In this document: piece by piece, positions 7,579-64,000 of the stretch | Position numbering within the stretch: position 1 is the stretch's first letter | Layout of the letters: each line of letters opens with the position of its first letter | Sequence record: OP352608 | Reading direction: 5' to 3' (one strand) | DNA: 64,000 bases | DNA from: Escherichia phage vB_EcoM_SP13 | Translations under genes and position numbers: made by a program | Notes under the pieces: generated by a model | The model's input: only the letters and a program-made list of their open reading frames with translations | Told to the model about the DNA's origin: nothing | The model's database searches: none

Positions 7579-7619
7579 ATTCATCGGCAAAGGATTGCCG
7601 CGAGTTTTATACGTATAAT

Positions 7620-7890
7620 GACGTATCATCCGTATCAAGTAAGTTGTTGTTTTCAAAAGAATCTTACGGATGATACGGATGATACGCGTTGCCGCCGTAC
7701 TATATAGGAATTCAAATAAATTAATTTAAAATTATATATCTAATTTAATTTTATTTTTTTATAAACTCTTATATATATGAAAAGTATCCGTATCATCCGT
7801 ATCATCCGTAGCACACCAGTGATAGCGCGGCTTATACACCGATACGGATAAAAATACGCCTCATTTTATCCGTATCATCCGTATCACACT
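7620..7890. repeat. palindromic 9-bp repeat element A (ATCCGTATC / GATACGGAT units around an AT-rich core)
   Basis: Units at 7622-7636, 7665-7686 (inverted), 7786-7810 (three tandem copies), 7841-7850 (inverted), 7867-7886; AT-rich core 7700-7785. Confidence 0.8.
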
Positions 7891-7943
7891 AATAAAGGCG
7901 CGGCTATATCGGTTGTTATACATATTCAAACCATAATTATTGT

Positions 7944-10051: not shown

Positions 10052-11191
10052 ATGACTCGCATTAGCCAAACACACTCTCGCCTCCCAGCGAGCAAGGTGC
10101 GCCCTTTTGATATGCAATCTGTTACCGACGCGGCTGTTTCCCAGCTTGCTCGTATCGGTATTGTGTTTGATTCCGCGATTGTGCGTGATCAGATTGAGCA
10201 CTTAAACCGTGCAGGCGCTTTCCGCGTAGGTGACGCCGCGTTCACTGCACCGCAGACTACTCCGTCAATCCCGACCCCGCTGCAGTTCCTGCAGCAGTGG
10301 CTGCCTGGCTTCGTCAAAATCATGACCGCTGCTCGTAAAATCGACGAGCTGGTTGGTATTGATACCGTTGGTCAGTGGGAAGATGCAGAAATCGTTCAGG
10401 GTATCGTTGAACCAGCTGGCACCGCAGTTGAATATGGTGATTTCACCTCTATTCCTCTGGCAAGCTGGAACGTAAACTTTGAACGTCGTTCTATCGTTCG
10501 TGGCGAAATGGGCATGGCAGTTGGTATGCTGGAAGAAGGCCGCGCGTCTGCTATGCGTCTGAACTCCGCAGAAACCAAGCGCCAGCAGGCTGCTGTATCT
10601 CTGGAAATCATGCGTAACGCAATCGGCTTCTATGGCTGGTACAACGGGAACAACCGCACATTCGGCTTCCTGAATGATCCAAACCTGCCAGCGGCGATGA
10701 CTTCCAACACCACTTCCGGCTGGGCTACTGCGACTTTCCAACAGGTAACTGCAGACATCCGTTTGATGGTTCGTCAAATTCGTGTGAACTCTCAGGACCA
10801 GATTGATCCAGAGAAAGTTGACATGACTCTGGCGCTGCCGACTAACTCTATCGATTGGCTGTCCAACACCACTGACTTCGGTATTTCTGTACGTGACTGG
10901 ATCACCCAGACCTATCCGAAGATGAAGATCAAATCTGCACCGGAACTCAACGGCGCACTTGGCAGTGACCCGACTTTCTTGAACGTGGCATACCTGTACG
11001 CTGATCACATCGATTCCTCAATCGATGGTTCAAGCGATGATGGTTCCGTATTCAGTCAGCTGGTTCAAACCAAGTTCATGACTCTGGGCGTTGAAAAGCG
11101 TGCTAAGAGCTACGTTGAAGACTACGCAAACGCAACAGCAGGCGTTCTGCTCAAGCGTCCGTTCGCAGTCGTCCGTATGACTGGCATTTAA
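10052..11191 (+). CDS. major capsid protein
   Basis: 379 aa, AGGTGA RBS, position after protease/scaffold; sequence resembles the DUF2184-type capsid family; followed by a stem-loop. Confidence 0.7.
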
Positions 11192-11216
11192 TTGCTGTGA
11201 TTACACAGTAAAACAC

Positions 11217-11246
11217 ATGGGGCGTGGTCGAAAGGCTTCGCCCCAT
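11217..11246 (+). terminator. stem-loop after capsid gene (ATGGGGCG / CGCCCCAT)
   Basis: 8-bp inverted repeat with 14-nt loop just after the capsid stop codon; no clear U-tract. Confidence 0.3.
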
Positions 11247-11306
11247 ATCAATAGACCTCAAGGGCTGTAGGGGCTTATCTGAGGCTTATATAAATAGGAC
11301 TACAAA

Positions 11307-11771
11307 ATGTCAAAATACATCGTTTCAACTATGTCTATGTCAGTTAACTACACTTTCTATACGGAAGTGAAAGAAAACCCGAATGCAAAAGCTGGTTCAG
11401 GCGCTCTTCCAAATATTCGCAAACAGATTCTAATCAAGGGCGGCGCTGGTCTTACTTCAGCAACTTCCGGCTTTGGTGAAATGGCAAAAGGCGCTGACGG
11501 TGCACCTTTGTGGACTCCTGAAGGAATCGTCACCGTTGTAAGCGATGCAGATTTTGAGCATCTGAAAGATCATCACGTGTTTAAGCAGCATCTTGAAAAA
11601 GGTTTGGTGAAAGTCGTAAATCACGACATTGTTGGCAATCACAAAGCCGTCGCTAAAGAAGTTCGCAGCATGTCAGACGACCCGTTTGCGCCTATGACGC
11701 GCGAAACTGCTGACAAGCGCATCAAGGTAAAATTGAGCGGCGACCAAGAAGATGATTTGTTCCGCGTTTAA
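11307..11771 (+). CDS. hypothetical structural protein
   Basis: 154-aa ORF after capsid gene. Confidence 0.4.
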   Translation: MSKYIVSTMSMSVNYTFYTEVKENPNAKAGSGALPNIRKQILIKGGAGLTSATSGFGEMAKGADGAPLWTPEGIVTVVSDADFEHLKDHHVFKQHLEKGLVKVVNHDIVGNHKAVAKEVRSMSDDPFAPMTRETADKRIKVKLSGDQEDDLFRV

Positions 11772-11785
11772 ATAAGGTGAATGCC

Positions 11786-12241
11786 ATGTCATTAGATTAC
11801 GAAAAGTTCAGAATTAAATTTCCACAGTTTGCTGATCAGGTTAAATTCCCTGACACAACACTTCAAGTATTCTATGACATGGCATGTGAATTTATTGAAT
11901 CACAAGACAGTCCTTGTCGTGTTTTAAATGGCAGTAAATTGGAGCTGGCATTGGAATATATGACGGCTCATCTTTTATGCATAGCCGCAGACCAACAAGT
12001 GTCTGTGTCTTCTGGTGACGGAGTTGAACAAGGCGGCTTCGTGACTGGCGCAACAATTGGTGACATCACAGTGAACAAAGTCGCGCCGCCTGCGAGTGAT
12101 GGCTGGGAATACTGGCTATCAAGCACTCCATATGGCATGGCGCTGTGGGCGCTTCTTCAAGCACTGGCCGTTGGCGGCTTGTCATTCGGCGGTCTTCCAG
12201 AGCGTGAAGGATTCCGTAAAATTGGTGGGGTATTCTGGTGA
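11786..12241 (+). CDS. hypothetical head-tail joining protein
   Basis: AAGGTGA RBS 5 nt before ATG 11786; synteny only. Confidence 0.4.
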   Translation: MSLDYEKFRIKFPQFADQVKFPDTTLQVFYDMACEFIESQDSPCRVLNGSKLELALEYMTAHLLCIAADQQVSVSSGDGVEQGGFVTGATIGDITVNKVAPPASDGWEYWLSSTPYGMALWALLQALAVGGLSFGGLPEREGFRKIGGVFW

Positions 12242-12624
12242 GGATTCCTGGCGTAAACTTATATCGAGTTGCGACAAAGGTTATCGGTCGCCAACCGATT
12301 CAATATTACATGTACAAGGGGCGCACCCTTGATAAGATGCGCAACTATGTCACTACATATGAAGAACCAATCACCTTACTTGCTTCGGTGCAGGCTGTAC
12401 TTCGAAACCAATACGTTGAGCTTGGTTTAGAGCTTCAAAAGAACTATGTCAAAATCTGGGTGGACAAAGACATTGTTGACCTTGACCGCGACGCTTCCGG
12501 CGACTATTTTGTGTTTGGTGGCAAAACATACAAGATGGAAGATGAAACGACATGGTTTGACCAAGATGGTTGGACGTCTTGCCTTGCCGTGGAAGTAAAA
12601 CAAAGCTTTCCAGTGTCTACTTGA
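12238..12624 (+). CDS. hypothetical head-tail protein
   Basis: GTG start overlapping previous stop; synteny. Confidence 0.35.
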   Translation: MRIPGVNLYRVATKVIGRQPIQYYMYKGRTLDKMRNYVTTYEEPITLLASVQAVLRNQYVELGLELQKNYVKIWVDKDIVDLDRDASGDYFVFGGKTYKMEDETTWFDQDGWTSCLAVEVKQSFPVST

Positions 12625-12631
12625 GGTGTAT

Positions 12632-13207
12632 ATGACAGATGTCGACCTGATTGACATGCTGGCAACGCGAATTGAAGAAGGTCTGGCGGCGTATAGTCGT
12701 GCAGACCTTTCTGCTGTTCCGGTCCAGAAAAAATACCAACCGACTCAACAGGGCATTCCGACTGGTGATCAGATTTGGTTTAACCTTTTATTCTCAGTCC
12801 CATTCGGTTGGTCAATGAGAAAGAATGAATTTGTCAATGATGAATCTCAATTCGTTAATGGCAAATTTAAAGATATTGAAGATCAGATATACGCAACACG
12901 TTTTCAAATTAGCGGCTTATTTCCAGAAGTTCCTGGCAATCCAGAAAAGCCTACGGCTAATGACGTTTTGACTTATTTAGCAAGATTCATAACCCACAAG
13001 GCTAATTTGAGGGATTGGTTTAAAAGGCATCAAGCTTCAGTATATAGAGTCGACATGAACAACAATGAAAAGTTCTATGACGACATGTCTCAGTTTGAAT
13101 CGTTTCCTTCTTTTGATTTGGTAATCCTTCACAGAAACGCAATTTCAATTGACACGCCTGCTGTTGCAAGAGCTGTTAATAACGATTTAGGCGATATTCC
13201 GGTGTGA
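12632..13207 (+). CDS. hypothetical head-tail protein
   Basis: ORF with GAGGTG upstream; synteny. Confidence 0.35.
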   Translation: MTDVDLIDMLATRIEEGLAAYSRADLSAVPVQKKYQPTQQGIPTGDQIWFNLLFSVPFGWSMRKNEFVNDESQFVNGKFKDIEDQIYATRFQISGLFPEVPGNPEKPTANDVLTYLARFITHKANLRDWFKRHQASVYRVDMNNNEKFYDDMSQFESFPSFDLVILHRNAISIDTPAVARAVNNDLGDIPV

Positions 13208-13208
13208 T

Positions 13209-13694
13209 ATGACAAAATCAAAAATGATAGAAAAACAGATAAAGGCGCTTCAATCGATGAAGGGTCTTACTGTTGAAGCAGGATGGTTTGATTCTACCAG
13301 ATACCCTTCAGAAACTGGTGGGGAAGGCATGTTGGTGTCAGAAGTCGCGCGACTGAATGAATTTGGTCACATAGCCGTTTTGAACTTTGGGCAAGGGCCA
13401 GTCAGGGTAGAAGTGCCACCCAGACCATTCATGAGATATGCCTATGAATTATTCGTTAGTGAGCGCAGTGAAATAGAGAATAAAATTGCTAAAAAGATTT
13501 TTTCCGGTAAAATAGACGCTAGACAGGCATTAGGTCAGATTGGGCTTGCGATGGAAGCAAAGATTGTCGAATCAATTAAAAACGGACCTTGGCAAAGAAA
13601 CGCCAGATATACCGTGCGTGTGAAAGGATTCGACAAACCTTTAATTCACAGCAGCCTTATGTGGCAATCTGTCAACAGCCAAGTCATTAAATAA
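13209..13694 (+). CDS. hypothetical tail protein
   Basis: ORF tightly packed before sheath gene. Confidence 0.35.
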   Translation: MTKSKMIEKQIKALQSMKGLTVEAGWFDSTRYPSETGGEGMLVSEVARLNEFGHIAVLNFGQGPVRVEVPPRPFMRYAYELFVSERSEIENKIAKKIFSGKIDARQALGQIGLAMEAKIVESIKNGPWQRNARYTVRVKGFDKPLIHSSLMWQSVNSQVIK

Positions 13695-13706
13695 GAGGAC
13701 ACCGAC

Positions 13707-15245
13707 GTGATCAGTCAATCTCGTTATATTAAAATTGTATCAGGGGTCGGAGCAGGCGCGGCTGTTGCAGTTCGCAAACTGTCGCTTCGCATCATGACTT
13801 CCAATACAGTTCTGCCGCCAGGCATTGTAGCAGAATTTTCAACTGCTGATGCCGTTGGATCATATTTCGGTTTTTCTTCCGAAGAATACAAGCGTGCAGC
13901 ACTGTATTTCGGATTCATCAGCAAGCAAATCAACTCGCCTGATTCAATCAGCTTTTCTCGCGTTGTATCCACGGCGATTCCTGCAATGGTTATCGGCGAC
14001 ACTGAGCCTAAAACGCTTGCTACTTTCCAGGCATTCACTGGCGCTATCTTAAGCATCACTTATGACGGCACAGACTACCTGACTGACGCCATCAACCTTT
14101 CAGCGGCAACAAGTCTTGCCAACGTAGCGGAACTTTTGGAAACGGCAATCAACACCAAGTTTGCAGCAGAAGGTGGCACGTCGGTGCCTGCACTTGCTGA
14201 TGCAGAAGTGTATTGGAATGCCAACACCCAGCAGTTCACTTTGGAAGCCGCTCCGTCGACCGCTGGTGCTGGAAACCTTTCGATTAACGTCACAGGTCAA
14301 CCGACAGACCCATCTCAGGCGCTTGGTTGGACGACTACTGGCACCGTTACGGTTGCTGGACAGGGTGTAGCAAGTCCGGTAGAAGCCATCGCGGCATCTG
14401 TGGAGATTTCCAACAACTTTGGCTCATTCCTTTTCGCTGGAGCAGACCGAACGCTGGAAGAAATCACAGCCGTTGCAGCTTGGACTCACTCGCAGAACAA
14501 CATGTACATGTATCTGTTCTCGACTGCATTCGCCAACATCGGCTCATACTATACCGCGTTGAAAGGTTACTCAGGCGTTGGTATGATGATCCGTGCAACT
14601 AACCTCGCGAATGATTACATCGACCAGGCGCCTGCTGAAATTCTTGCGGCGACAAACTATAACACTGTAAATGCAACTCAAAACTACATGTATTATCAGT
14701 TTGAAACGCGAAATGTAACCGTATCGACTGATTCACGCGCAGATACTGCTGATCAAAACCGTGCAAACTATATCGGTGCGACTCAGCAAGCTGGTCAAAC
14801 TCTCGCGTTCTTCCAGCGTGGTGTTCTGATGGGCGGGTCTACCGCAGCAGTTGACATGAACACTTATGCCAACGAGATGTGGCTTAAATCTGCTATCACT
14901 TCTCAGCTGTTCAGCATGTTCTTGAATCTTGGTCGCGTGCCTGCAAACGAAGAAGGCAAAGCGACTGTCCAAGCCATGATTCAAGTTGCTGTTGACAATG
15001 CGAAGGTTAACGGCACCATCTCTGTCGGTAAGGCGCTGACGGAAATTCAGAAACAGTACATCACGCAAACCTCCGGTGACAACACTGCTTGGCGGCAGGT
15101 TGAGACTATCGGTTATTGGTTGACTGTCGATTTTGACACTGAAACCACTTCCGATAACCGCACCGAATACTATGCAACATACACGCTAATCTACTCTAAA
15201 GATGATGCTGTGCGTCGCGTTGAAGGTCGTGACGTTCTTATTTAA
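13707..15245 (+). CDS. tail sheath protein (putative)
   Basis: 512-aa protein immediately upstream of tube gene; size and position typical of contractile sheath; GTG start. Confidence 0.55.
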   Translation: MISQSRYIKIVSGVGAGAAVAVRKLSLRIMTSNTVLPPGIVAEFSTADAVGSYFGFSSEEYKRAALYFGFISKQINSPDSISFSRVVSTAIPAMVIGDTEPKTLATFQAFTGAILSITYDGTDYLTDAINLSAATSLANVAELLETAINTKFAAEGGTSVPALADAEVYWNANTQQFTLEAAPSTAGAGNLSINVTGQPTDPSQALGWTTTGTVTVAGQGVASPVEAIAASVEISNNFGSFLFAGADRTLEEITAVAAWTHSQNNMYMYLFSTAFANIGSYYTALKGYSGVGMMIRATNLANDYIDQAPAEILAATNYNTVNATQNYMYYQFETRNVTVSTDSRADTADQNRANYIGATQQAGQTLAFFQRGVLMGGSTAAVDMNTYANEMWLKSAITSQLFSMFLNLGRVPANEEGKATVQAMIQVAVDNAKVNGTISVGKALTEIQKQYITQTSGDNTAWRQVETIGYWLTVDFDTETTSDNRTEYYATYTLIYSKDDAVRRVEGRDVLI

Positions 15246-17208: not shown

Positions 17209-17741
17209 TGGCTATCGATTTACTGTCATATAGTCTATCAAACAGAAGCTTCACGATAAAGAGCTTCAACCTTGGAGAAGTATCCACGCTTGGATGGGCC
17301 ATAGTCAACGTCAAAATAAGACTCCAAGCAAAGATATTCAAAAACCAAAGGGAAGACGGCAGCTATATTGTCGATGGCAGAGTAAAGATGCCGCGAATAC
17401 TCACTGTCACCGTGATAGCTCAGACGAAAAGCGCATCAGATGCAATAGCTAAGATGTTGCAAAACAGGTCGACTATATACACAATTAATTCCCGTGGTCT
17501 AATATTCGAACGTATGGTGCTGCAAAATAACAACTTCAGCCAGGACGCTGACAATATAACGTCTCAGCCCATACAATTGGTCTTCCATGAGATATTAACA
17601 CAGCAGGATGTGTCTATTCAAACAGCGCAGGCAGGCGACTCAACAGTAATAGAGCGCGGCATTGCATACATAAAAGAAACTTCTGCCAGCGTCACCGGCG
17701 TCGCTACAAAGGTGATGAATGGTATCAAGGGGATGTTCTGA
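17208..17741 (+). CDS. hypothetical tail protein
   Basis: ORF overlapping previous stop. Confidence 0.35.
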   Translation: MAIDLLSYSLSNRSFTIKSFNLGEVSTLGWAIVNVKIRLQAKIFKNQREDGSYIVDGRVKMPRILTVTVIAQTKSASDAIAKMLQNRSTIYTINSRGLIFERMVLQNNNFSQDADNITSQPIQLVFHEILTQQDVSIQTAQAGDSTVIERGIAYIKETSASVTGVATKVMNGIKGMF

Positions 17742-18301
17742 TGGACTTCGTTTCGATTCTGCTTTCTGGTCAATCTTTGACCATAACGAATGAGTCAACA
17801 GGTCTTCCTGTCTGGACAAGGCTTTCACCTGTTTCTGCAGAAATAACATCCCCAGCAGAAACAACTCAATTCCCTCTTGCTGGCACAGCCATGCAGGTTG
17901 TCGAAGTATCAAGCACGTCATCAGTAAGCAATTTACAGGCAGCAAAGGTTGTAATGCCAGCCCATATGGCGTTAAACGTAATTTGCAATGACCAGTCTAC
18001 AATTGAAAATATCATAAATTCATTTGATGATGACGAAGTCACATTTTCAATAACTTCTCGAAGCATCATTGCCAGTAAAATGTCGATGTCCGACGTTGAA
18101 ATAACCCAGTCAGAAGAAAACTTGAATGGAGTCTCAATAGTAATAACTTTCGAGCAAACGTCATTTAGCATTCAAGGAAGCTTCGACCCTAAACAATCTG
18201 CAGACGAATCATCAAATGGTGTTGCTATTAAAGAACCAGTCAGTTTGACTACAACTGTGAGTTCGTTATATAATAAAATAAAATCAACAGTAGGAATATA
18301 A
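17741..18301 (+). CDS. hypothetical tail protein
   Basis: ORF overlapping previous stop. Confidence 0.35.
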   Translation: MDFVSILLSGQSLTITNESTGLPVWTRLSPVSAEITSPAETTQFPLAGTAMQVVEVSSTSSVSNLQAAKVVMPAHMALNVICNDQSTIENIINSFDDDEVTFSITSRSIIASKMSMSDVEITQSEENLNGVSIVITFEQTSFSIQGSFDPKQSADESSNGVAIKEPVSLTTTVSSLYNKIKSTVGI

Positions 18302-47292: not shown

Positions 47293-48375
47293 ATGGCTAG
47301 TTTAAGAGAAGAAGCAAAAATAATTGAAGAGTTTTTAACAGAACTCCAGAGAGGCATCCCAGAAGATGAGCGCGTCATGACGGTGTTTGCTCCTGAAGCA
47401 ACGGTGCAGACTGACGAGCGCGGAAAGAAGATTAACAGCAGCTTCTGGCCTAAGCCTTGGAAGTTGGGCAAGCCGCTCATGCAGCACCAAAACGGCTATG
47501 CTTGCATCAGTTCAATGCGTAAGTCTCCCAACCCAAAGACGGGTGAGATGCGATACTGGCGTACAGAGTCGGCCTTTGGTCACGGTATGGCGATGATGGT
47601 CGACGACATCGGTCACGGTAAAGGGTCCAAAGGCGATTTAGATTTGGAATTCTTTTTTGAGCGACTGAAGCCGACTGTCATCGTCGAGACTTCACCGAAC
47701 AACCACCAGCTTTGGTACTTCTTTAAAGAACCGATTGACCATCTTATTCAGTTCAAAGCGTTCCTTGGGTCTTTCGTTAACATGGTACTCAAGAAGGGCG
47801 GCGACAACACGATTAAAGACGTAACGCGCGTGGGCCGTGTTCCTGGGTGCATCAATAACAAGCGTGTGACTCACGACGGCCCCTATAAATATGTCGATGA
47901 GAACGGCGACCCGTTCCGCTGCCGACTTGTCCATGCAGACTACTCCTTGCGCTACACCATCGAAGACATTTGTCACGCATTTGGCTTTCACGTCGTCATG
48001 CCGCAAAAGCGTGAGATTCAAATTGACGTCGATGAATACAAGTATGATGCCGTTTGGTATAAAATAGCCCAGCAGATTCTGGCGCGCAACAAGATGGGTG
48101 AAGGGTCTGATGGCGACGTCATCGAGAATATGTCAGGCAAGTGCCGCATAATCTGTCCTTGGGGTGAAGAGCACACCAACGGCGACCCGTATGGCGCGTA
48201 CTTTCGCGGCCCTATCCCTGGTGCAGAACATGAATTTGTGTTCGGTTGCGCCCACGACTGTCACCGGAAAGGGGAAGGCAAGAAAGGTTGGACTGCTTTT
48301 GTTGAAGCAATCGTCATGCCTTATATTGAGAATCAACTTGACATGATAAATCGTCGTGCAGGTGGCATAAAATAG
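47293..48375 (+). CDS. DNA primase (archaeo-eukaryotic primase / Prim-Pol-like) with zinc-binding C-terminus
   Basis: hhhDD motif MAMMVDDIGHG, His motif region, C-terminal CPWGEEH ... CAHDCH cysteine/histidine cluster. Confidence 0.5.
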   Translation: MASLREEAKIIEEFLTELQRGIPEDERVMTVFAPEATVQTDERGKKINSSFWPKPWKLGKPLMQHQNGYACISSMRKSPNPKTGEMRYWRTESAFGHGMAMMVDDIGHGKGSKGDLDLEFFFERLKPTVIVETSPNNHQLWYFFKEPIDHLIQFKAFLGSFVNMVLKKGGDNTIKDVTRVGRVPGCINNKRVTHDGPYKYVDENGDPFRCRLVHADYSLRYTIEDICHAFGFHVVMPQKREIQIDVDEYKYDAVWYKIAQQILARNKMGEGSDGDVIENMSGKCRIICPWGEEHTNGDPYGAYFRGPIPGAEHEFVFGCAHDCHRKGEGKKGWTAFVEAIVMPYIENQLDMINRRAGGIK

Positions 48376-49684: not shown

Positions 49685-51355
49685 ATGTCAATTAATAATG
49701 ACAATCTTCCAGAGGATACAGGTGATGAATTTGGTGCAATCTTTGACGAAATTCAAGATGCAGGCGTTTCGGAAGAAATGCAGGCAGCAGAGCAGCAAGG
49801 CACCAGAGCTAAAATCAGCCTTCAACATAAAGCCGTTGAAAAAGATTCAGAGCGCATGGAATGCTACGGTGAAGAAGACTTGGTTGAAAGAGCACGCTTG
49901 CTCGCCTCACTTCAGGTAATCAAGTTCCCTCACTACAAGCCGACCAAAGATGACTTCGTTCTACAGGCAGACCGGACGAGTGACATGAACCGTTATGCGG
50001 TTTTCGACGCGTTGTTTGATAAGGGAAGTGGCGTTGTTCCATTCCCTCACAAAGATACTTTTCGTGGGCGCTTAGTCGACCATCGCGGCGAAACATTCAC
50101 CGACCGTACTTTGGAAGTCACAGAGATAGTTGCCGCTGTCGACGCAGCAGGATTGTCCAACCCAAACTCACGTCAGGTCGCTCAATCCTATAAGGAATGG
50201 GCCATGCGTTATCAGCGCGACGACCTGATGGACTTCTTCTACAAGAAGCTGCCTGAATGGGACGGTACTGCGCGCATCGAGAAATACCTTATCGAGCTAT
50301 TCCGACCGTTCGATACAGAGTTAAACCGACAAATCGGTGTGTATTTTTGGCTATCGCTCTACAACCGCCTGACCAACCCTGGCTGTCAAGCGCCAATTTC
50401 TATCGCGCTCATCGGCGGCCAGAACGCAGGGAAGAGTTATTTTAGCAAGCTGCTTTGCGAAGCTATTATGAACGACCGCCACGCAACACCGATTCCGTTG
50501 AACTTAGCCGCGCAAAACTTCAACCCGTTCTTGCGAGCTATTACGGGTCGCTCAATTATCGCGAACGTTGGCGAGATGACAGGCTTTAAAAAGGCCGACA
50601 TCGAAAACATGAAAGCATTCCTGACTAAGACGGAAGATGACCTGGACTTCAAATTTGAAGATACGCAGGTTAAACCACGCCAGTGGATTGCGATAATGGA
50701 CGGCAACGAATACGCAGGTATGCAGCGTGATGACACGGGCAACCGTCGTGTGTATCCTATCTTTGTTGGCCAACTCGCCGACAAGGACGGGCAACCGAAC
50801 TGGTCGAAAGACTTCCAAGCTGACCTTTCCACTTTGAAAGAAGACGTTTGGCAATTGATGGCTGAGTGCGCTGCTTGGATGGAGAAGCACGGCGAAGCAG
50901 GTTACAACGCGTTTGTTGGTGAAACATCTCGCATGCTCACTGAGTTTAGTAAGAACGAAATGGAACGTGCACGCGGCGTTATTCGTGATGAGATGGTTGA
51001 CAACGACCTTGTTGAAGTCGTCATTACCGCGCCTTATGACCGACATCACAGCGGACGCTGGCACATAACCAGTGGTGCTATTGCTATGGGATTCAGAGCG
51101 AAGTGCGGCAAGTCGCCTTTCTCTCGTACCCTTGCGCCGCACATGTCGAAGCTTGGTTTTGAGCCTGCAACCTATCGCAACCAGCGCGGTTACTTTACGC
51201 CGCTGATTAAGAATGAAGCAGGAGAATACATTTCTGATTTGATGACCATCTTAGCGTATCTTATCCGCGATGAGTCTGACCCTGAAGATATTGAATTCTT
51301 GAAGAAGGTTATTGAGCGTAAACGTTCTTTGGGAAGAGATAAGGATGAATTCTGA
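49685..51355 (+). CDS. VirE/P4-type primase-helicase family NTPase
   Basis: Walker A IGGQNAGKSYF and downstream NTPase motifs in C-terminal half; 556 aa. Confidence 0.5.
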   Translation: MSINNDNLPEDTGDEFGAIFDEIQDAGVSEEMQAAEQQGTRAKISLQHKAVEKDSERMECYGEEDLVERARLLASLQVIKFPHYKPTKDDFVLQADRTSDMNRYAVFDALFDKGSGVVPFPHKDTFRGRLVDHRGETFTDRTLEVTEIVAAVDAAGLSNPNSRQVAQSYKEWAMRYQRDDLMDFFYKKLPEWDGTARIEKYLIELFRPFDTELNRQIGVYFWLSLYNRLTNPGCQAPISIALIGGQNAGKSYFSKLLCEAIMNDRHATPIPLNLAAQNFNPFLRAITGRSIIANVGEMTGFKKADIENMKAFLTKTEDDLDFKFEDTQVKPRQWIAIMDGNEYAGMQRDDTGNRRVYPIFVGQLADKDGQPNWSKDFQADLSTLKEDVWQLMAECAAWMEKHGEAGYNAFVGETSRMLTEFSKNEMERARGVIRDEMVDNDLVEVVITAPYDRHHSGRWHITSGAIAMGFRAKCGKSPFSRTLAPHMSKLGFEPATYRNQRGYFTPLIKNEAGEYISDLMTILAYLIRDESDPEDIEFLKKVIERKRSLGRDKDEF

Positions 51356-59076: not shown

Positions 59077-59609
59077 TGGGTAACGATGCAGGATGGGGCA
59101 AGCCGCGATACTCAAAACTTGCCCACTACTTTGACGACGGCGAGCAAATCAGCTTGTGCGGTAAATTCAACAAAGGCAATACAGAGTTGACCGATGCTCA
59201 AGAAATGGAATCAAGTCTGACAATTGGTGATTGCTCTAAGTGCAGAAAGGCATTATATGAGTTATTGACTCTAAGGGGATTGAAAGCGGCAAAATCAAGG
59301 GATGAATGGGTCATCAACGTCTGTGAAGGGAATCCAGAATTGATGGATGAATTGCTGAAAACAGATGCCGTTAATGCCATTTTCAAAAGGCATTATAAAA
59401 CTTGTATGCGTTACAAGATGAATGATGATATTATTTTTATGGTATTATCTTATTCAAGGAGCACAATGGACGTCAAAAAGCTTCGACAATATCGCCACAA
59501 GGTCATGTGTGAATTGCGCCGTTTAGGAGTTATTGTGGATAATAATGTCATTAAAACGGAGTTAAAGAAGCGTGATAAAAGGAATGGTGACTGGAAGGTC
59601 AGCGGATAA
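59073..59609 (+). CDS. hypothetical Cys-rich protein
   Basis: 178-aa ORF with several Cys pairs (CGKF, CSKCRK). Confidence 0.4.
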   Translation: MMGNDAGWGKPRYSKLAHYFDDGEQISLCGKFNKGNTELTDAQEMESSLTIGDCSKCRKALYELLTLRGLKAAKSRDEWVINVCEGNPELMDELLKTDAVNAIFKRHYKTCMRYKMNDDIIFMVLSYSRSTMDVKKLRQYRHKVMCELRRLGVIVDNNVIKTELKKRDKRNGDWKVSG

Positions 59610-59612
59610 ATA

Positions 59613-59637
59613 AACACTGTTTACGTGTTTTGAAGAA
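59613..59637 (+). terminator. stem-loop after last early gene (AAACAC / GTGTTT)
   Basis: 6-bp inverted repeat followed by TT. Confidence 0.3.
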
Positions 59638-59869
59638 TGGAATGTGTGCAATGGGTCGCTTTATGCGGCCTTTTGTCGTTTGGGTCATGTTTTGCTATGG
59701 AATAATTATGAGGTTGTGTTTTATTTATTAATTGTGCGGAAATATTTAGAAATATATATAAACAGGATTGTTAATATTTTAATAGTTTATGGCTATTGGT
59801 CCGTGGTGTTTGTTAGATTCTATCTATGGATTGGATTTTCTTGGGTCGTGAAACGTGGTTTTGAACACA

Positions 59870-60240
59870 TTTGATACGCCTAAAATACGGTTAAAAATTA
59901 AGCGTATCATGGCTGCAGGCCGCGCCGTTCCTGGATTCCTCTTTTCCAAATTGGTACACCCTTACGTCATGATACGTCATGGTTTTTTATCCGTATCAGT
60001 GTACAACCCTTGCCGCGCCTGGCTTGTACATTAATCTTACGGATGATACGGATAAAACTGAGCATCGTTATATATAGAATTCGAAAAATTAATTAACTCC
60101 AATTTTAAAAACATTTATATTAATTTTTTTCATATCCTCATACTTATGTTAATTTATATATTTAACGTATCATCCGTAAGATATAAGTAAAAACAAAGAC
60201 TTGCGGCAATACGGATGATACGTCATGATACGCTTCAACC
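59870..60240. repeat. palindromic 9-bp repeat element B (homolog of element A)
   Basis: Units at 59965-59980, 59990-59998, 60038-60054 (inverted), 60167-60179, 60211-60234; AT-rich core 60065-60165 resembles 7700-7785. Confidence 0.8.
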
Positions 60241-60461
60241 AGCCAGCAGCGGCTAAGTCGTTGATTTGCATAACAAGCGGCAAAAGGGATGGATTTCTTT
60301 TATACGTATCAAACAGTACACCACGCACCACGGTCCGTTATCCATTCAGCAATATGATTTGTGTACGTTTATAGCCATAATGAACATCAATCTGCACTTG
60401 AATATAATGTCCATCCATTGTATAATTCACACTATTAATTTGCACTATGGGATTTTGCACT

Positions 60462-60935
60462 ATGAGTCAAGATTATGTAGCGATGCCTGAAGACTTTGAA
60501 GACCCGCGATTCGCAGAGCACAATCAGGCTTTATTCGATGAGTTCATTGACCTTGTTATTCAGGGTCATGACATGCGCGCAGCTTTTGCACTAGTATTTG
60601 GAATGGAAGTTGCAACGGATAACTACACTGGCCAGCGAATCCTTTGCACGCAACGCAATCCATACTACAAGATGCGCTTCAAAAAGCGTATGGAAGAGAT
60701 GCCACTCAAGGATTTGTGGAGCGTAAAAGGTGCAATTCACAATTTGGTTAAGCTTGTTCGTGATCCAGAAGTCGCGGCGTCAGCCAAGCTTAATGCTATT
60801 CGTGAACTGAATATCATCTACGGCATCACGATGATTGATGAAAACGGCAATAGTAAAATGGGCCGTTCCATGGACGATTTCTACAAGGATTTTGGAGAGG
60901 CGGCCAAAGAAGGTGAGCAATTCTCCCGCCACTAG
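60462..60935 (+). CDS. terminase small subunit-like protein (tentative)
   Basis: 157 aa; C-terminal AKLNAIRELNIIYG region resembles small-terminase/DNA-binding folds; motif copies overlap its start codon; far from terL in this window. Confidence 0.3.
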   Translation: MSQDYVAMPEDFEDPRFAEHNQALFDEFIDLVIQGHDMRAAFALVFGMEVATDNYTGQRILCTQRNPYYKMRFKKRMEEMPLKDLWSVKGAIHNLVKLVRDPEVAASAKLNAIRELNIIYGITMIDENGNSKMGRSMDDFYKDFGEAAKEGEQFSRH

Positions 60936-60954
60936 CCAATTTGCACTATAAAAC

Positions 60955-60988
60955 GGCCCTAGAACACATTTTCTCCAATTCTAGGGCC
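60955..60988 (+). terminator. stem-loop (GGCCCTAGAA / TTCTAGGGCC)
   Basis: 10-bp perfect inverted repeat with 14-nt loop just after the 60935 stop; no U-tract. Confidence 0.35.
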
Positions 60989-61049
60989 ATCGGTAATACG
61001 ACGGGGAAGGTTACAAACATAAACGCGTTAGAAAGTGTATTATTATAAG

Positions 61050-61313
61050 TCATCTTTTAGTCACCTTACGTAACAATTTACGACCTTCAACCGTCCAATC
61101 GAACGACTCCACCAGCAGATTCGCACTATAACCTAAGACGATGCGTCCCTTCTCGTTATCGACCCGCCAACAAGTCTCGAATAGCATTCGATTTGCACTA
61201 TTAACTATTGCCGCAACTCGCGTAGGATAAGCGCAATTTGAACTATGGTCGTAAAGGGATAAGGTGCGACCACTTCCGATGGACAACGTAGCGATGAGAA
61301 TGAGCGTATTCAT
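61050..61313 (-). CDS. hypothetical protein
   Basis: 87-aa ORF; motif copies fall inside it. Confidence 0.3.
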   Translation of the reverse strand: MNTLILIATLSIGSGRTLSLYDHSSNCAYPTRVAAIVNSANRMLFETCWRVDNEKGRIVLGYSANLLVESFDWTVEGRKLLRKVTKR

Positions 61314-61363
61314 AAGCCACCAATTTGCACTATGAAAAGCGACCCCGAAGGGCCGCCATTCGA

Positions 61364-61990
61364 TTAGATAATCTGGAAGGTATAGGATTTGTTGCCGAAC
61401 TCAAAGTTCAAGCGCCCAGCTTCCTTAAGCTTCATGCGGAAGCGAATGTGCTTGCTATCCGGCAAGCCCAGCACGGCGAACGCTACGCGGACCGATTTGA
61501 ACTCGCCTACACCCTCGACCATAACGCCGTTACGGGTGAGACGCTTTTGCGCCACTTCCTTATTATCCCAACTTTTTGCAATACCTTCGCTATTCGAACG
61601 GCGATGGGAAGGAGTTCCATTTTGCACTACGCAATTTGCACTATCGTTTAGACCGCTCTTAACGAAGGCTTCATACTCTTCGTCGGTCATCGCGTCGAGT
61701 TCTTCCTGGGTCGGCTCGGCCTTTTTAACGACCGCACGCGCCTTATGCGTTTTTACATCGCTGGACACTTCCTCGCGCGACTTCGCTTCGGGGATGGGCG
61801 ATTCGTTGGACGGCTCATCGAGCGCGTTTAAGGACTCGATTAACGCGATTACGCGAGTCTCGGCGGTACGGCGGTCCGCAAATTTCTTAATCGGCTTCGA
61901 ACCGGAATTTGCATTATAAAATGCAACGAGGTCGGCGGTCTTAGTTGCGATAACGTCGCCGCTAGTCGAGAAACGATTTAAGCTAACCAT
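61364..61990 (-). CDS. hypothetical protein
   Basis: 208-aa ORF spanning the visible composition change. Confidence 0.4.
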   Translation of the reverse strand: MVSLNRFSTSGDVIATKTADLVAFYNANSGSKPIKKFADRRTAETRVIALIESLNALDEPSNESPIPEAKSREEVSSDVKTHKARAVVKKAEPTQEELDAMTDEEYEAFVKSGLNDSANCVVQNGTPSHRRSNSEGIAKSWDNKEVAQKRLTRNGVMVEGVGEFKSVRVAFAVLGLPDSKHIRFRMKLKEAGRLNFEFGNKSYTFQII

Positions 61991-62070
61991 AATGAACTCC
62001 TATTTGTTAGGGCGCTAGGCGCGAAAGAATTTTATTAAAGCGCCGCGCACGACGCTCTAAAAATCCTCTC

Positions 62071-62355
62071 TTACGCTTCGACGAGGGAGAAGGTCTCAAA
62101 TTCTTCTTCGCCCATAACGAGTAAGATGTTACCGATTTCGACCGCTTCGAAGAAGTATCCGTTAACGTTTACTTCGAAGGCTTCGCGGTCCGATTCCGGT
62201 AACGCCGCGTAAAGTTTAAAAGCCTCGGCGACCGTTACCCCACCCGCCTCGATGGTCTGGTCTACGTTCGCGGCGTAGACTTCGGATAAAATTTGTTTTA
62301 CGCCGTAGTTCTCGACGATAGCGTTACGGATGGAAGAAACGTTAAGAATAGCCAT
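62071..62355 (-). CDS. small acidic protein, paralog family member
   Basis: Similar to 62990-63280 product (MAILNVSSIRNAIVEN vs MITLSAIRAARVETSEN; VNVNGYFFEAVEIG vs VTINGFVYTITEIG); preceded on minus strand by conserved promoter-hairpin-RBS cassette. Confidence 0.5.
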   Translation of the reverse strand: MAILNVSSIRNAIVENYGVKQILSEVYAANVDQTIEAGGVTVAEAFKLYAALPESDREAFEVNVNGYFFEAVEIGNILLVMGEEEFETFSLVEA

Positions 62356-62423
62356 TTTAAACTCCTAGTTGGGAGAGGCGTTAACGACCTATTCGCTAAC
62401 TCATCCCGTCCCGATATGAGTAC

Positions 62424-62451
62424 ATTATAATATAGTGTAGAAAAAAGTAAA
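62424..62451 (-). promoter_or_regulatory. promoter TTTACT-N16-TATAAT (minus-strand copy of cassette)
   Basis: Minus -35 at 62446-62451 and -10 at 62424-62429; same cassette as 62894-62922. Confidence 0.5.
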
Positions 62452-62495
62452 GCACTTTTTCGATAAAAATGCGATAAATTATTTTATCTTTTTTC

Positions 62496-62523
62496 TTTAC
62501 TTCTTCGTACACTCGCGTATACT
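62496..62523 (+). promoter_or_regulatory. promoter TTTACT-N16-TATACT (cassette copy)
   Basis: -35 at 62496-62501, -10 at 62518-62523; followed by GGGAG RBS and ATG 62580. Confidence 0.5.
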
Positions 62524-62579
62524 TGTTTATATCGAGACGGGCGATGGCCCTTCCTTCTACTAGCATCGGGAGCTTTATT

Positions 62580-62882
62580 ATGACTACTTTAATCTCTTCC
62601 ATCCTTACTTACGACGAAGACCGTTTAACCGTTCGCTCTCTTATCGCCGCCGTTAACGCCGAACTAGAATCTAGCGCCATTAAGGTCCGCGCGGTTGCCT
62701 TCGTCGGTCTTTCCTTCGACGATATCAAGTACGCCGAACGTAGCGCCATCCGCTTCGCGAAGACCGACGACGAAGCCGTTACCCTTATCGAGACGGTTAC
62801 TCCGCGCGGCGAAACGTTAATTATCGTCGAGTATATCGACGTAGAAGGCGATAAGGCTTATAAATATTTTATCGCAAAATAA
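62580..62882 (+). CDS. hypothetical small protein
   Basis: GGGAG RBS 7 nt before ATG 62580. Confidence 0.45.
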   Translation: MTTLISSILTYDEDRLTVRSLIAAVNAELESSAIKVRAVAFVGLSFDDIKYAERSAIRFAKTDDEAVTLIETVTPRGETLIIVEYIDVEGDKAYKYFIAK

Positions 62883-62893
62883 CGAAAAAGTGC

Positions 62894-62922
62894 TTTACTT
62901 CTTAGTACACTAAGACTATAAT
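62894..62922 (+). promoter_or_regulatory. promoter TTTACT-N17-TATAAT followed by 5' UTR hairpin
   Basis: -35 at 62894-62899, -10 at 62917-62922; hairpin GGTAGCGA / TCGCTACC at 62945-62965; AGGAG RBS; ATG 62990. Confidence 0.55.
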
Positions 62923-62989
62923 GTTTTATATCGAGAGGGGATGAGGTAGCGAATAGGTCGCTACCCTCCCGACTAACTAGGAGAATATT

Positions 62990-63280
62990 ATGATCACTTT
63001 ATCCGCTATCCGTGCCGCTCGCGTCGAAACTTCCGAAAACTCTAACGTATTTGGCGAAACCTTAGAGAGCGTTTATCTCTCTAACGTTGACGCGATTATC
63101 GAGTCTATTTATGAGCCGATCAACTTCCTCGACCTTTACAAGTATCGCGATGAGGACATCGTGTCCTACCGCGTAACGATTAACGGCTTCGTTTATACGA
63201 TTACCGAAATCGGCGGCGAATATCTCGCTGTACCGCAACTCGGCGGCGAAGTAACTTACTTTAAAATCGTAAGCCTTTAA
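62990..63280 (+). CDS. small protein, paralog family member
   Basis: Paralog of 62071-62355 product; strong promoter and RBS. Confidence 0.5.
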   Translation: MITLSAIRAARVETSENSNVFGETLESVYLSNVDAIIESIYEPINFLDLYKYRDEDIVSYRVTINGFVYTITEIGGEYLAVPQLGGEVTYFKIVSL

Positions 63281-63291
63281 GGAGAAGAAAA

Positions 63292-63501
63292 ATGATTAAT
63301 ATGAATAACTCTCTTAACGCGCGCGCCCATCGCACCGCCGTCATCGATATGTTCCGTGAGCTTAAGGACTTATGCGATAATATGAACGCGATGTTATCCA
63401 TCGGCGGCTGGGGATACGAAGAAGAAGTTAAATATGCGGTTATGCGTCGCCGTCGCGATAACGTCCTTGGGCAAATTAAACGCGCCGGATTATTCCTTTA
63501 A
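63292..63501 (+). CDS. hypothetical small protein
   Basis: AAGGAGAAG RBS before ATG. Confidence 0.45.
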   Translation: MINMNNSLNARAHRTAVIDMFRELKDLCDNMNAMLSIGGWGYEEEVKYAVMRRRRDNVLGQIKRAGLFL

Positions 63502-63669
63502 TTATAATCAACCACCGTTACTAATAGGCCGCGCTTAGTCGCGGCTTTTCTTCGTCCCTATCTCGGTGCGCTCCTACGCGAAAACTCCTTTATCCTTCCC
63601 TTCGTCGTCGCATAATCTTCGTCGATATGCGCCTTAGTTCGCATAACAGGTATTACGTTAAATGGAGAA

Positions 63670-63940
63670 CATCGCGTAAGTCCTTGTTTTATATAGACAC
63701 CTATATCGGACCGTTAGGGCGGGTCGCGTAAGTCGTTGTTTTATAAAGGCGCAAAACTTTCCCTTCGTTCCGAACTAAAACGAGGAATATGCCGACCCTT
63801 CGTCCGAAAATAGTACGCATGCGAAATTACATGCATCTAGAATAATCCCCACAGATATTATCCTACACGCAATCATTCGCTTTCGAATCATTATGCTTCA
63901 TATTATTATGCGTCGAATCATTCGCTTTCGAATTGTAACG
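63670..63940. repeat. direct repeats in 3' non-coding region
   Basis: CGCGTAAGTC(C/G)TTGTTTTATA twice (about 63673 and 63725); AATCATTCGCTTTCGAAT twice (about 63870 and 63917). Confidence 0.6.
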
Positions 63941-64000
63941 CTGGAAACTGTAACGGCGATTGATTATTGCGTTCGTGTGGTTTTTATGGCATGGGTCTTT

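Follow-up and report, generated by a model that had tools for sequence, protein, structure and literature searches.

The repetition of a short word in one orientation around the small terminase gene (terS) of a phage raises the question of what reads it, and at which level. The phage is a Wifcevirus, a PB1-like E. coli myophage, and the window is the whole 64-kb stretch of its genome that was analyzed; the other 4.5 kb of the ~68.5-kb genome was searched as F13 10755-15238. An earlier note had reported nine copies in the same orientation, and this is what we find: with at most one mismatch, ATTTGCACTAT occurs nine times in 60438-61917, always on the plus strand, whereas shuffled sequence gives 1.87 ± 1.38 occurrences (9 versus 1.9) and none of 100 shuffles reaches nine. 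Five copies are exact (60438, 60939, 61191, 61323, and 61634) and four carry one mismatch (60453, 61119, 61236, and 61907); three more with two mismatches (60425, 60584, and 61620) fall in the same stretch, also on the plus strand. The core TTGCACTA occurs eight times between 60440 and 61636, all on the plus strand, and nowhere else on either strand of the window; the probability of this clustering together with the strand bias is ~5e-14. In the other 4.5 kb there is no copy with one mismatch or fewer. The genome-wide count against expectation that the note had proposed gives enrichment at a single locus on a single strand, not an even distribution over both.

A co-oriented array beside the genome end

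The landmarks of the region are these:

60024..60232, unstranded: terminus-centered element; AT-rich core with the cut position, between CTTACGGATGATACGG and its inverted copy
60102..64000, unstranded: direct terminal repeat (DTR), probably the right-end copy; its left boundary (60101/60102) is the physical left genome end
60398..60426, plus: predicted sigma-70-type promoter TTGAAT-17-TATAAT upstream of terS, with 10/12 consensus matches
60462..60935, plus: small terminase gene terS; E=7e-34 to PDB 7UXE, 'Small terminase', decameric (10 chains)
61050..61313, minus: small ORF of 87 aa with three motif copies; variable sites per codon position 5/5/28, as in a real coding gene
61109..61116, minus: host Chi (GCTGGTGG on the minus strand), 2 nt from the copy at 61119
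61364..61990, minus: conserved DTR gene of 208 aa with 2-3 motif copies; homologues in Kyle, MyoSmar, and PS44

The WFC record carries an exact 3784-bp duplicate at both ends, the first base of which corresponds to window position 60102 with 60/60 identity. Mansfield's record begins at that same position, PhageTerm having given its DTR as 3673 bp (PMC6753283), and the final 40 bases of the window agree with the right DTR boundary of Mansfield; the DTR is 3.7-3.9 kb long. Measured from the terminus at 60102, the array runs from +324 to +1533 (the last solid copy), with a doubtful copy at +1806, and it straddles terS, with copies on both sides of the gene. Inverted repeats I1 and I13 are centered ~5 nt from 60102, and their arms are conserved in 12 genomes. 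These terminus-centered repeats (GGATGATAC iterons) are a family separate from the motif within the same end region.

Most copies lie inside genuine coding sequence. The best structural match of TerS, PDB 7UXE, is presumably the TerS of Pbunavirus E217, Mansfield annotates the gene as terminase small subunit, and its variable sites by codon position (6/1/44) are mostly third positions. The 87-aa ORF has a 28% identical homologue in Kyle. The 208-aa ORF, with variable sites 15/14/87 by codon position, is 49% identical to its homologue in Kyle and 34.5% to that in MyoSmar; it matched nothing in Pfam or the PDB, even as a four-sequence profile, and a homologue search with it as a candidate reader of the motif returned near-identical sequences only. 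Single-sequence AlphaFold models of the two ORFs were unusable (pLDDT 51 for 61050-61313 and 41 for 61364-61990).

The copies, with their variation scored across 13 genomes (this phage and 12 other Wifcevirus), are:

60425..60435, plus: weak copy ATTCACACTAT, two mismatches; overlaps the 3' end of the terS -10 hexamer; invariant in 13/13
60438..60448, plus: ATTTGCACTAT in the terS leader, exact; invariant in 13/13
60453..60463, plus: TTTTGCACTAT, one mismatch; its final bases are in the terS ATG (60462)
60584..60594, plus: doubtful copy TTTTGCACTAG within terS, two mismatches; on a conserved Ala-Leu pair
60939..60949, plus: ATTTGCACTAT, exact, 3 nt past the terS stop; invariant in 13/13
61119..61129, plus: ATTCGCACTAT inside ORF 61050-61313, one mismatch here; exact ATTTGCACTAT in 10/13 genomes
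61191..61201, plus: ATTTGCACTAT inside ORF 61050-61313, exact
61236..61246, plus: ATTTGAACTAT inside ORF 61050-61313, one mismatch here; exact in the other 12 genomes
61323..61333, plus: ATTTGCACTAT between ORFs 61364-61990 and 61050-61313, exact; invariant in 13/13
61620..61630, plus: weak copy TTTTGCACTAC inside ORF 61364-61990, two mismatches; present in 10/13 genomes
61634..61644, plus: ATTTGCACTAT inside ORF 61364-61990, exact here
61907..61917, plus: doubtful copy ATTTGCATTAT, one mismatch; varies between relatives

At 60453, a 1-nt deletion gives exact ATTTGCACTAT in 9/13 relatives. The site at 61634 is kept in 10/13 genomes (nine exact, one with one mismatch); the remaining three, in which the copies at 61620 and 61634 are both absent, have a different allele of that gene segment. 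The copy at 60584 may be non-functional because it falls on the codons of a conserved Ala-Leu pair in TerS, and Kyle terS also has GCACTA at the orthologous position. The copy at 61191 has the same codons (VNSAN) at the equivalent place in Kyle and PA1. Two copies of the 12 lie 5 nt from terminator hairpins: 60939, before a bidirectional hairpin read from the sequence at 60955-60988, and 61323, next to one at 61339-61356. Otherwise we find no conserved flanks or hairpin around the copies, and the conserved block, (R)ATTYGCACTAY, is only 11-12 nt long. All copies are direct repeats, and the spacings between them (13, 15, 131, 355, 180, 72, 45, 87, 297, 14, and 273 bp) show no helical phasing, leaving an array that is irregular across ~1.2 kb.

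The orientation of the motif is constant whatever the strand of the gene, and its copies occupy every permitted reading frame in genes of both strands. As the earlier note had observed, copies lie within minus-strand ORFs (61050-61313 and 61364-61990) and two overlap the start of terS, with the ATG at 60462 in the copy at 60453 and an alternative ATG at 60447 in the copy at 60438. A peptide-repeat artefact is excluded: both stop-free frames are used in the minus-strand genes (xSAN and VVQ/IVR) and all three in the plus-strand genes. Descent from a duplication is likewise excluded, the flanks of the copies being unrelated. There is no mention of the motif in the literature consulted on Wifcevirus, Mansfield, vB_Eco4M-7, and E217 TerS, no Rfam match in 59500-64000, and no convincing match by eye to the consensus of DnaA, the sigma-54 -12 element, marbox, ops, or Ter.

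The array in other phages

The Pantoea phages Kyle and PA1 carry arrays of (R)ATTYGCACTAY in the same place and orientation, with the same flanking ATTY. Kyle has 13 array copies of GCACTA(Y), from +477 to +1478, and the strict form TYGCACTAY occurs seven times in one DTR copy and not once in the remaining ~66 kb of unique sequence; PA1 has 13 copies, from +270 to +1145 relative to the terS start. Most of these sites are at non-orthologous positions, and blastn returns no alignment between Wifcevirus and Kyle or PA1 in the array zone. Because the DNA of the two Pantoea phages cannot be aligned to that of this phage there, the array behaves as a maintained DNA-level signal: it is kept across genera independently of surrounding sequence and coding frame. 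The function at the DNA level that the earlier note had suggested is therefore supported twice over, by the independence of frame and strand and by the survival of the word in two lineages whose DNA cannot otherwise be aligned here. A test within the genus showed no significant excess of conservation in motif columns over the sequence around them (p=0.19 for all positions; p=0.74 for third codon positions). The Wifcevirus genomes are too alike, so the argument is carried by over-representation and by the comparison between genera.

The word is absent from MyoSmar, a Hera-like phage, Pbunavirus PS44, IMG/VR loci, and Salmonella PCSE1, and a scan of IMG/VR for paired copies gave only chance matches and coding repeats of AT-rich phages. 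Some of the motif-less relatives carry Chi arrays or other repeats.

The motif arrays of Kyle and PA1 are interleaved with co-oriented host Chi arrays that face the left genome end. Kyle has nine Chi sites (255-1972) and PA1 seven, each beside 13 motif copies; Wifcevirus has one beside 9-12. That one, at 61109, is the sole exact Chi in the DTR, is kept at +1008 in 12/12 other Wifcevirus genomes, and is oriented to be active for RecBCD entering through the left genome end. The shared orientation of the Chi sites shows which end of the genome RecBCD would meet, and the arrays suggest that these phages depend on host recombination inside the terminal repeat.

Candidate readers of the motif

We tentatively favor a packaging role for the array, as a polar signal scattered over several sites that terminase would read, although we hold this view at somewhat less than even confidence. 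The motif would be a cis-acting signal at the level of double-stranded DNA, of fixed polarity, marking the first ~1.5 kb of the DTR. Much as a pac, cosB, or cosQ site in dispersed form, the array would inform terminase of its position, on phage DNA at the repeat, and of its direction of travel, the copies serving as binding sites for TerS or being recognized by the translocating TerL motor en route to the terminal cut. Both the identity of the reader as terminase and its action in packaging are what we infer from the setting of the array: the solid copies all lie inside the DTR, within ~1.5 kb of the left end and on either side of a genuine terS, and the pac and cos sites of lambda, P22, SPP1, and P1 are in or beside the small-terminase gene, near the cut (PMC9611059). 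Uniqueness of the locus at one mismatch or fewer is expected of a signal that identifies one place in the genome, a polarity that ignores gene strand suits a single direction of DNA travel, and the array is maintained across genera, in Kyle and PA1. Among full-length proteins, TerL is the best conserved between Wifcevirus and Kyle, at 75% identity, and is outscored only by a 71-aa fragment of an antisense ORF; this is in keeping with a conserved protein reading a conserved word. Within the TerS N-terminal domain, the three motif-bearing lineages share (Q/R/K)-R-N-x-Y-Y, a basic QRN/RRN/KRN patch, where motif-less relatives have E-S-N/T. Finally, in the Wifcevirus phages F13, WFC, and Mansfield a motif-related sequence, AATTTGC(A/G)GTACACTAAT, is found 25-30 nt past the right end of the repeat, and more diverged versions occur there in Kyle (AATTTCACAGTACACTAAT) and in PA1 (AAATTCACCGTACACTAAAT, at about the expected position of a boundary that is unmapped in that phage).

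Pac-like small-terminase boxes were among the alternatives raised by the earlier note, and they remain the best single guess; to the note's observations we can add that the array starts ~320 bp inside the physical genome end, in the DTR. Their assignment to TerS fares less well. Its DNA-binding domain is poorly conserved, the N-terminal identity among motif-bearing lineages (40-44%) being no higher than that to motif-less Pbunavirus (39%), and E217 TerS has no appreciable DNA binding in vitro (PMC9611059). Known TerS arrays are compact (< ~300 bp) and near the cut, whereas the motif is spread, unphased and mostly in coding sequence, over 1.2 kb. The lineage-specific GGATGATAC iterons, symmetric about the cut, are a more conventional candidate for the cut site. 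MyoSmar, Pbunavirus, and Salmonella PCSE1 have homologous TerS and TerL and no comparable array, and the within-genus conservation test also gives this view no help.

Less probable, but of some weight, is that the copies are strand-specific sites for priming or for replication-recombination, read by a RepB'-type primase or an SF3-type helicase. The motif would be recognized on one exposed strand, either during RecBCD processing up to Chi or in a D-loop between terminal repeats, and one-directional DNA synthesis would start from the repeat. The phage encodes a RepB-family primase (ORF 47293-48375; PF16793, E=4e-36) and a VapE/D5-like NTPase (ORF 49685-51355), and in RSF1010 priming by RepB' is restricted to particular single-strand initiation sites. 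Recognition of a single strand would be expected to give the strict polarity, uneven spacing, and disregard of gene orientation seen here; the primases of Wifcevirus and Kyle share 71% identity; and the motif is interleaved with Chi in Kyle and PA1 and has a copy 2 nt from Chi in Wifcevirus. PHROGs profiling of 20 of the 33 listed ORFs of at least 200 aa identified TerL, portal, DNA polymerase, helicases, primases, ligase, and tail proteins, and among these 20 no recognizable phage recombinase, which fits the reliance on host RecBCD plus Chi that has been proposed for Chi-rich phages (PMC12315714). Against priming, the same primase (56-64% identity) is present in motif-less Pbunavirus, Serratia, and Xanthomonas relatives, most Wifcevirus copies are left of the only Chi site, and the sites lack a conserved hairpin, unlike the ssi sites of RSF1010. 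Confinement to 1.2 kb would be odd for lagging-strand priming, and classic iteron origins are compact and phased, which the array is not. A related view, which we consider decidedly unlikely, makes the word a polar signal of the Chi/KOPS class, read by a DNA-translocating enzyme that enters at or runs from the left end. Such an enzyme might be the motor that packages the DNA, a helicase-primase of the phage, or host RecBCD redirected by a phage factor, and the motif would work alongside, or partly replace, host Chi in the terminal repeat.

Other readings tie the copies to gene expression. It is unlikely that they are operators through which a phage regulator, possibly TerS itself, controls terS and the convergent leftward operon. 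The copies at 60425, 60438, and 60453, between the predicted terS -10 (60421-60426) and the start codon, are ideally placed for repression, and tight control of terS is plausible because TerS overproduction is harmful in E217 (PMC9611059). Kyle and PA1, however, have no copies near their terS promoters, the first being 120-270 nt inside the gene; most copies are deep in ORFs and distant from predicted promoters; the divergent promoters at 62424-62523 and 62894-62922 carry none; a non-palindromic word in one orientation is unusual among operators; and a search of the first 8 kb of Kyle gave no homologue of the 'transcriptional regulator' ORF of the DTR (63292-63501). Because the copies are uniform in DNA orientation, the convergent transcript sets share 11-nt complementarity, so that terS mRNA (AUUUGCACUAU) might pair with its exact complement in leftward transcripts and thereby limit terS translation or stability. 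The terS start codon does lie within a copy in Wifcevirus; the terS copies of Kyle and PA1 lie within the gene, away from the ribosome-binding site, there is no Rfam match, and the transcripts come solely from consensus scans. We know of no precedent for multi-copy trans pairing of this kind and regard it as very improbable. Equally improbable are leftward promoters for host polymerase (minus strand TATAGT-GCAAAT) or for a phage-modified form of it. Read on the minus strand, several copies give (T/C)ATAGT or TATAAT, close in sequence to a -10 hexamer, and the copy at 61323 is 10 nt upstream of the start of ORF 61050-61313, but there is no -35 element or upstream conservation, the Kyle equivalent GTAGTG lacks the essential A at position 2, three copies stand in an 87-codon gene and none before any other gene in 68 kb, and a promoter scan was negative at the motif sites. 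The likeness of CACTAT(A) to the 3' part of SP6 and T7 promoters, the sole support for a T7/SP6-type reading, had led the earlier note to consider promoters of a single-subunit RNA polymerase while remarking that the window encodes none. The remark agrees with our profiling, which found no single-subunit RNA polymerase among 20 of the 33 listed ORFs of at least 200 aa (that of 965 aa encodes a DNA polymerase), and the search of the remaining 4.5 kb that the note had proposed gives a tail protein and small ORFs, with no such polymerase annotated. The block is 11-12 nt rather than ~20 (-17 to +3 or beyond), with unconserved positions after it, and the copies, which occur nowhere else in the genome, fall within ORFs on either strand rather than ahead of co-oriented genes. 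Because no such polymerase was found among the profiled ORFs or the annotated remainder and the sites are not in front of genes, the T7/SP6 promoter idea is effectively refuted.

For the question of how phages with kilobase-long DTRs recognize, cut, and duplicate their ends, the motif offers a specific candidate signal that can be tested; its distance from a mapped terminus is defined, and it is kept across two genera. If its reader is TerS, the terminase family of the 7UXE protein, for which we know of no DNA target, would gain its first recognition site, an aid in designing synthetic or therapeutic relatives, the PB1-like Pseudomonas phages; vB_Eco4M-7 has already been rebuilt from PCR fragments (PMC11074155). 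If the reader is instead a translocating enzyme, the motif would be a new polar DNA signal.

Comparison with known systems

Several systems share part of this architecture. The phage encodes candidate initiators in its VapE/D5-like NTPase and RepB primase; for an iteron origin, however, the copies are dispersed and unphased, and the GGATGATAC inverted-iteron/AT-rich element at 60024-60232 fits that architecture better. CACTAT(A) is common to the motif and to T7/SP6/T3 promoters, which differ from it in conserved block and in placement relative to genes. The ssiA and ssiB sites of RSF1010 are likewise strand-specific signals, read by the RepB' primase, and this phage encodes a RepB-family primase; they are nonetheless ~40 nt long, with a hairpin and one per strand, whereas the motif is a hairpin-less 12-mer in at least 10 copies on one strand. 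Short-repeat arrays by the terminal repeat of T7 and T3, reportedly described by Dunn and Studier in 1983, have long been suspected in concatemer processing or packaging, and they resemble the motif as arrays of a short word tied to the DTR of a virulent phage. The T7 arrays are ~180 bp, non-coding, and just outside a 160-bp repeat; the motif array is inside a 3.8-kb repeat and within genes. The iss region of T5 offers a similar setting, a repeat-rich cis zone in a long DTR with early genes (bioRxiv 10.1101/866236), but it is a large untranslated region with inverted repeats, palindromes, and DnaA boxes, while the motif copies are direct and mostly coding and, compared by eye, agree with the DnaA-box consensus at only 7-8/9 positions.

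The terminal Chi arrays of P1 and LLS-type lambdoid phages are, like the motif array, polar, irregular, multi-copy, near one end, and in coding sequence (PMC12315714). The word itself differs, being neither GCTGGTGG nor a known active variant and reading ATAGTGCAAAT on the Chi-bearing strand. The R-sites of lambda cosB, the pac hexamers of P1, and pacL/pacR of SPP1 are, as here, short repeats by the cut and the small-terminase gene, and they are unique in their genomes, where they set the site and direction of packaging; the motif array is likewise unique. Those arrays span ~120-270 bp, are often phased and sometimes of mixed orientation, and are largely non-coding, whereas the motif array is an irregular 1.2 kb that begins 320 bp from the cut, is mostly genic, and is strictly co-oriented.

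The terminal repeat and its motif array

The region studied here is 100% identical to Escherichia phage F13 over 2.5 kb and matches 27 other Wifcevirus records (WFC, WFH, FEC19, ECML-117, Mansfield, Bas98-101) at 91-98% identity; these phages are described as PB1-like myophages (PMC11990801). The two ends of the WFC record are exact duplicates over 3784 bp, the first base of which maps to window position 60102 (60/60 identity), and the Mansfield record was opened at the same place, from a PhageTerm-predicted 3673-bp direct terminal repeat (PMC6753283; PMC6563267). The right boundary of the Mansfield repeat coincides with the last bases of the window (64000). From the WFC duplicate and the Mansfield boundaries, 60102-64000 is a single terminal-repeat copy, probably that of the right end. 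This end point, together with an F13-type protein recorded on a 72,384-bp sequence, makes it probable that the window forms the final 64 kb of a record with the repeat at both ends. With the terminus mapped at 60102, the motif array spans +324 to +1533 counted from the left physical end, and a doubtful copy sits at +1806.

The motif, ATTTGCACTAT, occurs in five exact and four one-mismatch copies between 60438 and 61917, all on the plus strand, so that the earlier note's count of nine plus-strand copies stands on recounting. The expectation is 1.87 +/- 1.38 copies, and nine were reached in 0 of 100 dinucleotide-preserving shuffles. Three two-mismatch copies (60425, 60584, 61620) share the stretch and the strand. 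The 8-mer core TTGCACTA is found eight times, always on the plus strand, within 60440-61636 and nowhere outside it on either strand; the joint chance of this clustering and strand bias is ~5e-14. The earlier note had proposed a genome-wide count; the 4.5 kb of genome missing from the window (supplied by F13) holds no motif copy with one mismatch or fewer. Copy spacing is irregular and unphased.

Features in and around the array, with genes discussed below (window coordinates)
995-2455: TerL, far from terS
47293-48375: RepB-family (RepB') primase (PF16793, E=4e-36)
49685-51355: VapE/D5-like NTPase, replication module
60398-60426: predicted sigma-70-type promoter TTGAAT-17-TATAAT, upstream of terS
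60425, 60438, 60453: motif copies between the predicted -10 hexamer of the terS promoter and the ATG
60462-60935, plus strand: terS (small terminase), matching the decameric 'Small terminase' of PDB 7UXE at E=7e-34
60939: motif copy after the terS stop, before a bidirectional terminator hairpin
Gap before ORF 61050-61313: one motif copy
61050-61313, minus strand: ORF of 87 codons holding three motif copies
61364-61990, minus strand: ORF of 208 codons holding two or three motif copies

ORF 60462-60935 is a genuine small terminase; PDB 7UXE is presumably the TerS of the Pbunavirus E217. The earlier note was right that two copies overlap the start of terS and that others lie within the two minus-strand ORFs. 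Both ORFs are real genes, since the differences among 13 genomes fall mainly at third codon positions (variable sites by codon position: 5/5/28 in ORF 61050-61313 and 15/14/87 in ORF 61364-61990). Copies in the minus-strand genes use both frames that avoid an in-frame TAG (xSAN and VVQ) and copies in plus-strand genes use all three frames; because every permitted frame is used, the constraint acts on DNA or RNA and not on a peptide. Further right, two near-identical rightward promoters (62496-62523 and 62894-62922) have the form cTTTACTtcttcGTACACT...TATA(C/A)T-gtttatatcga, with a conserved spacer common to both. F13 has a third copy owing to a ~303-bp duplication relative to the window, between 62549 and 63049, and the same promoter type occurs in Pantoea phage PA1.

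Conservation of the array within and across genera

Seven core copies occupy the same positions in 13/13 Wifcevirus genomes, and the copies at 61119 and 61236, each with one mismatch in the window, match the motif exactly in most relatives. Across these 13 genomes the variability of motif columns is not significantly lower than that of their surroundings (6.5% vs 11.8%, p=0.19; third positions, p=0.74), because the genomes are so similar. The comparison with other genera is decisive for the array. Pantoea phage Kyle (L015), whose TerS and TerL are 43% and 75% identical to those of the window phage, has an exact terminal repeat of 3603 bp with terS at +357 and 13 copies of GCACTA(Y) from +477 to +1478, on one strand throughout. 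The strict form TYGCACTAY has seven sites in one copy of the Kyle repeat and none on either strand of the other ~66 kb, all of it unique sequence. In PA1, whose TerS is 60% identical to that of Kyle, 13 copies lie between +270 and +1145, counted from the terS start, and the opposite strand has none. ATT(T/C) is enriched upstream of the core in all three lineages, giving the consensus (R)ATTYGCACTAY. In the array zone, blastn aligns no part of the Wifcevirus repeat with those of Kyle or PA1, and the majority of copies occupy non-orthologous positions; selection has therefore maintained the array while individual sites turned over.

The motif word does not occur in the corresponding region of Serratia phages (MyoSmar and a Hera-like phage), Salmonella phage PCSE1, Pbunavirus (PS44 and IMG/VR loci) and other IMG/VR relatives. 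MyoSmar (L017) carries three copies of AAAAAATAAGCATGCTTTGTA, with a palindromic GCATGC core, at flipped repeat coordinates 977-1096; lying in the zone of the Wifcevirus and Kyle arrays, these may be a lineage-specific counterpart.

Repeat boundaries and Chi sites

The left terminus (60101|60102) falls in the AT-rich centre of a ~190-bp element, 60024-60232, bounded by CTTACGGATGATACGG(ATGATACG) and the inverse ACGTATCATCCGTAAG, whose arms are kept in 12/12 Wifcevirus sequences (the window and 11 relatives), even with replaced DNA further left. An intergenic paralogue (7640-7830, 77% column identity) precedes the prohead protease gene and is flanked by further CGTATCA pairs at 7622/7631 and 7871/7880 (7600-7900), and Kyle has the same two-element arrangement with different iterons (at the junction and at 17676-17926). 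The architecture looks like that of an origin or cut site, and the element is a more conventional candidate than the motif for cut-site or origin recognition. A different element, AATTTGC(A/G)GTACACTAATCA(A/G)AAT, is conserved in Wifcevirus genomes 25-30 nt right of the repeat's right boundary, with a second, partial element ~100 nt further on (F13, 10776-10800 and 10873-10895; compared sequence L003, 3725-3750). More diverged forms occur in Kyle (3626-3650) and in PA1, where the right boundary is unmapped and the element lies roughly where that boundary is expected. This element and the motif have AATTTGCA and ACACTA(A)T in common.

Host RecBCD, a translocating enzyme, is known to read Chi as a signal, and the polarity of Chi is established: the orientation seen in these repeats is the one active for RecBCD entering at the left end (see also PMC12315714 on Chi polarity). 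Kyle has nine copies of the Chi reverse complement, CCACCAGC, at +255 to +1972, only four elsewhere and two in the opposite orientation. Co-oriented Chi sites also lie inside the terminal repeats of PA1 (seven), MyoSmar (four) and the Hera-like locus (four exact plus near-matches), and IMG/VR relative L037 has six copies of GCGCCAGC(G), the reverse complement of a proposed Pseudomonas Chi. Wifcevirus has a single such Chi (61109-61116, minus strand, +1008), kept in 13/13 genomes and 2 nt from the motif copy at 61119. Sites in the right-end repeat copy are in the inactive orientation, implying that RecBCD has access to the left end alone. No recognisable phage recombinase (RecA/UvsX, Erf, RecT or Sak type) was found among the 20 profiled of 33 ORFs of at least 200 aa, which would fit repeat-repeat recombination that depends on host RecBCD/RecA and Chi; Kyle has an annotated endonuclease VII gene.

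Candidate readers and likeness to known systems

The most likely reading, held tentatively, is a packaging-related polar signal, because of terminus proximity, genome uniqueness, the terS neighbourhood, the related element past the right boundary and the conservation of TerL, whose 75% identity between Wifcevirus and Kyle is the highest of any full-length protein. Against it weigh the dispersed layout, the separate, more conventional cut-centred element and a divergent TerS, whose N-terminal (DNA-binding) half is 40-44% identical among motif-bearing lineages, no higher than against motif-less Pbunavirus. TerS residues about 60-75 read (Q/R/K)-R-N-x-Y-Y in Wifcevirus, Kyle and PA1 and E-S-N/T in motif-less PS44, MyoSmar and PCSE1, a change of charge that may mark a DNA contact, although phylogeny confounds the comparison. 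In vitro, E217 TerS did not bind DNA (PMC9611059). The two repeat-encoded ORFs gave no family match, PDB match or usable structure model.

A strand-specific priming or recombination-coupled signal ranks second and is possible. Between Wifcevirus and Kyle the RepB' primase and the SNF2 helicase are each 71% identical; the primase, 56-71% identical across Pbunavirus, Serratia, Burkholderia and Xanthomonas relatives and 50% in a Salmonella relative, occurs in motif-less relatives too. Operators for a regulator rank third and are unlikely, the idea being weakened because Kyle and PA1 lack copies at their terS promoters, and a new polar translocase signal is decidedly unlikely. Pairing between convergent transcripts is a minor and very improbable account, as are host-type or phage-sigma promoters, and the T7/SP6-type promoters raised in the earlier note can in effect be dismissed. 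Some explanation outside these keeps roughly one fifth of the weight.

We found no mention of the motif array in the papers examined on these phages. It would work most like pac/cosB- or cosQ-type packaging signals or a Chi-type polar array, and it has the zone and polarity of the Chi arrays, with the same irregular spacing and the same embedding in coding sequence. However, pac/cosB-type signals are compact and the array is not, and the motif departs from a Chi-type array in sequence; for these reasons the array is assigned to neither type and seems most akin to terminus-associated repeat arrays.
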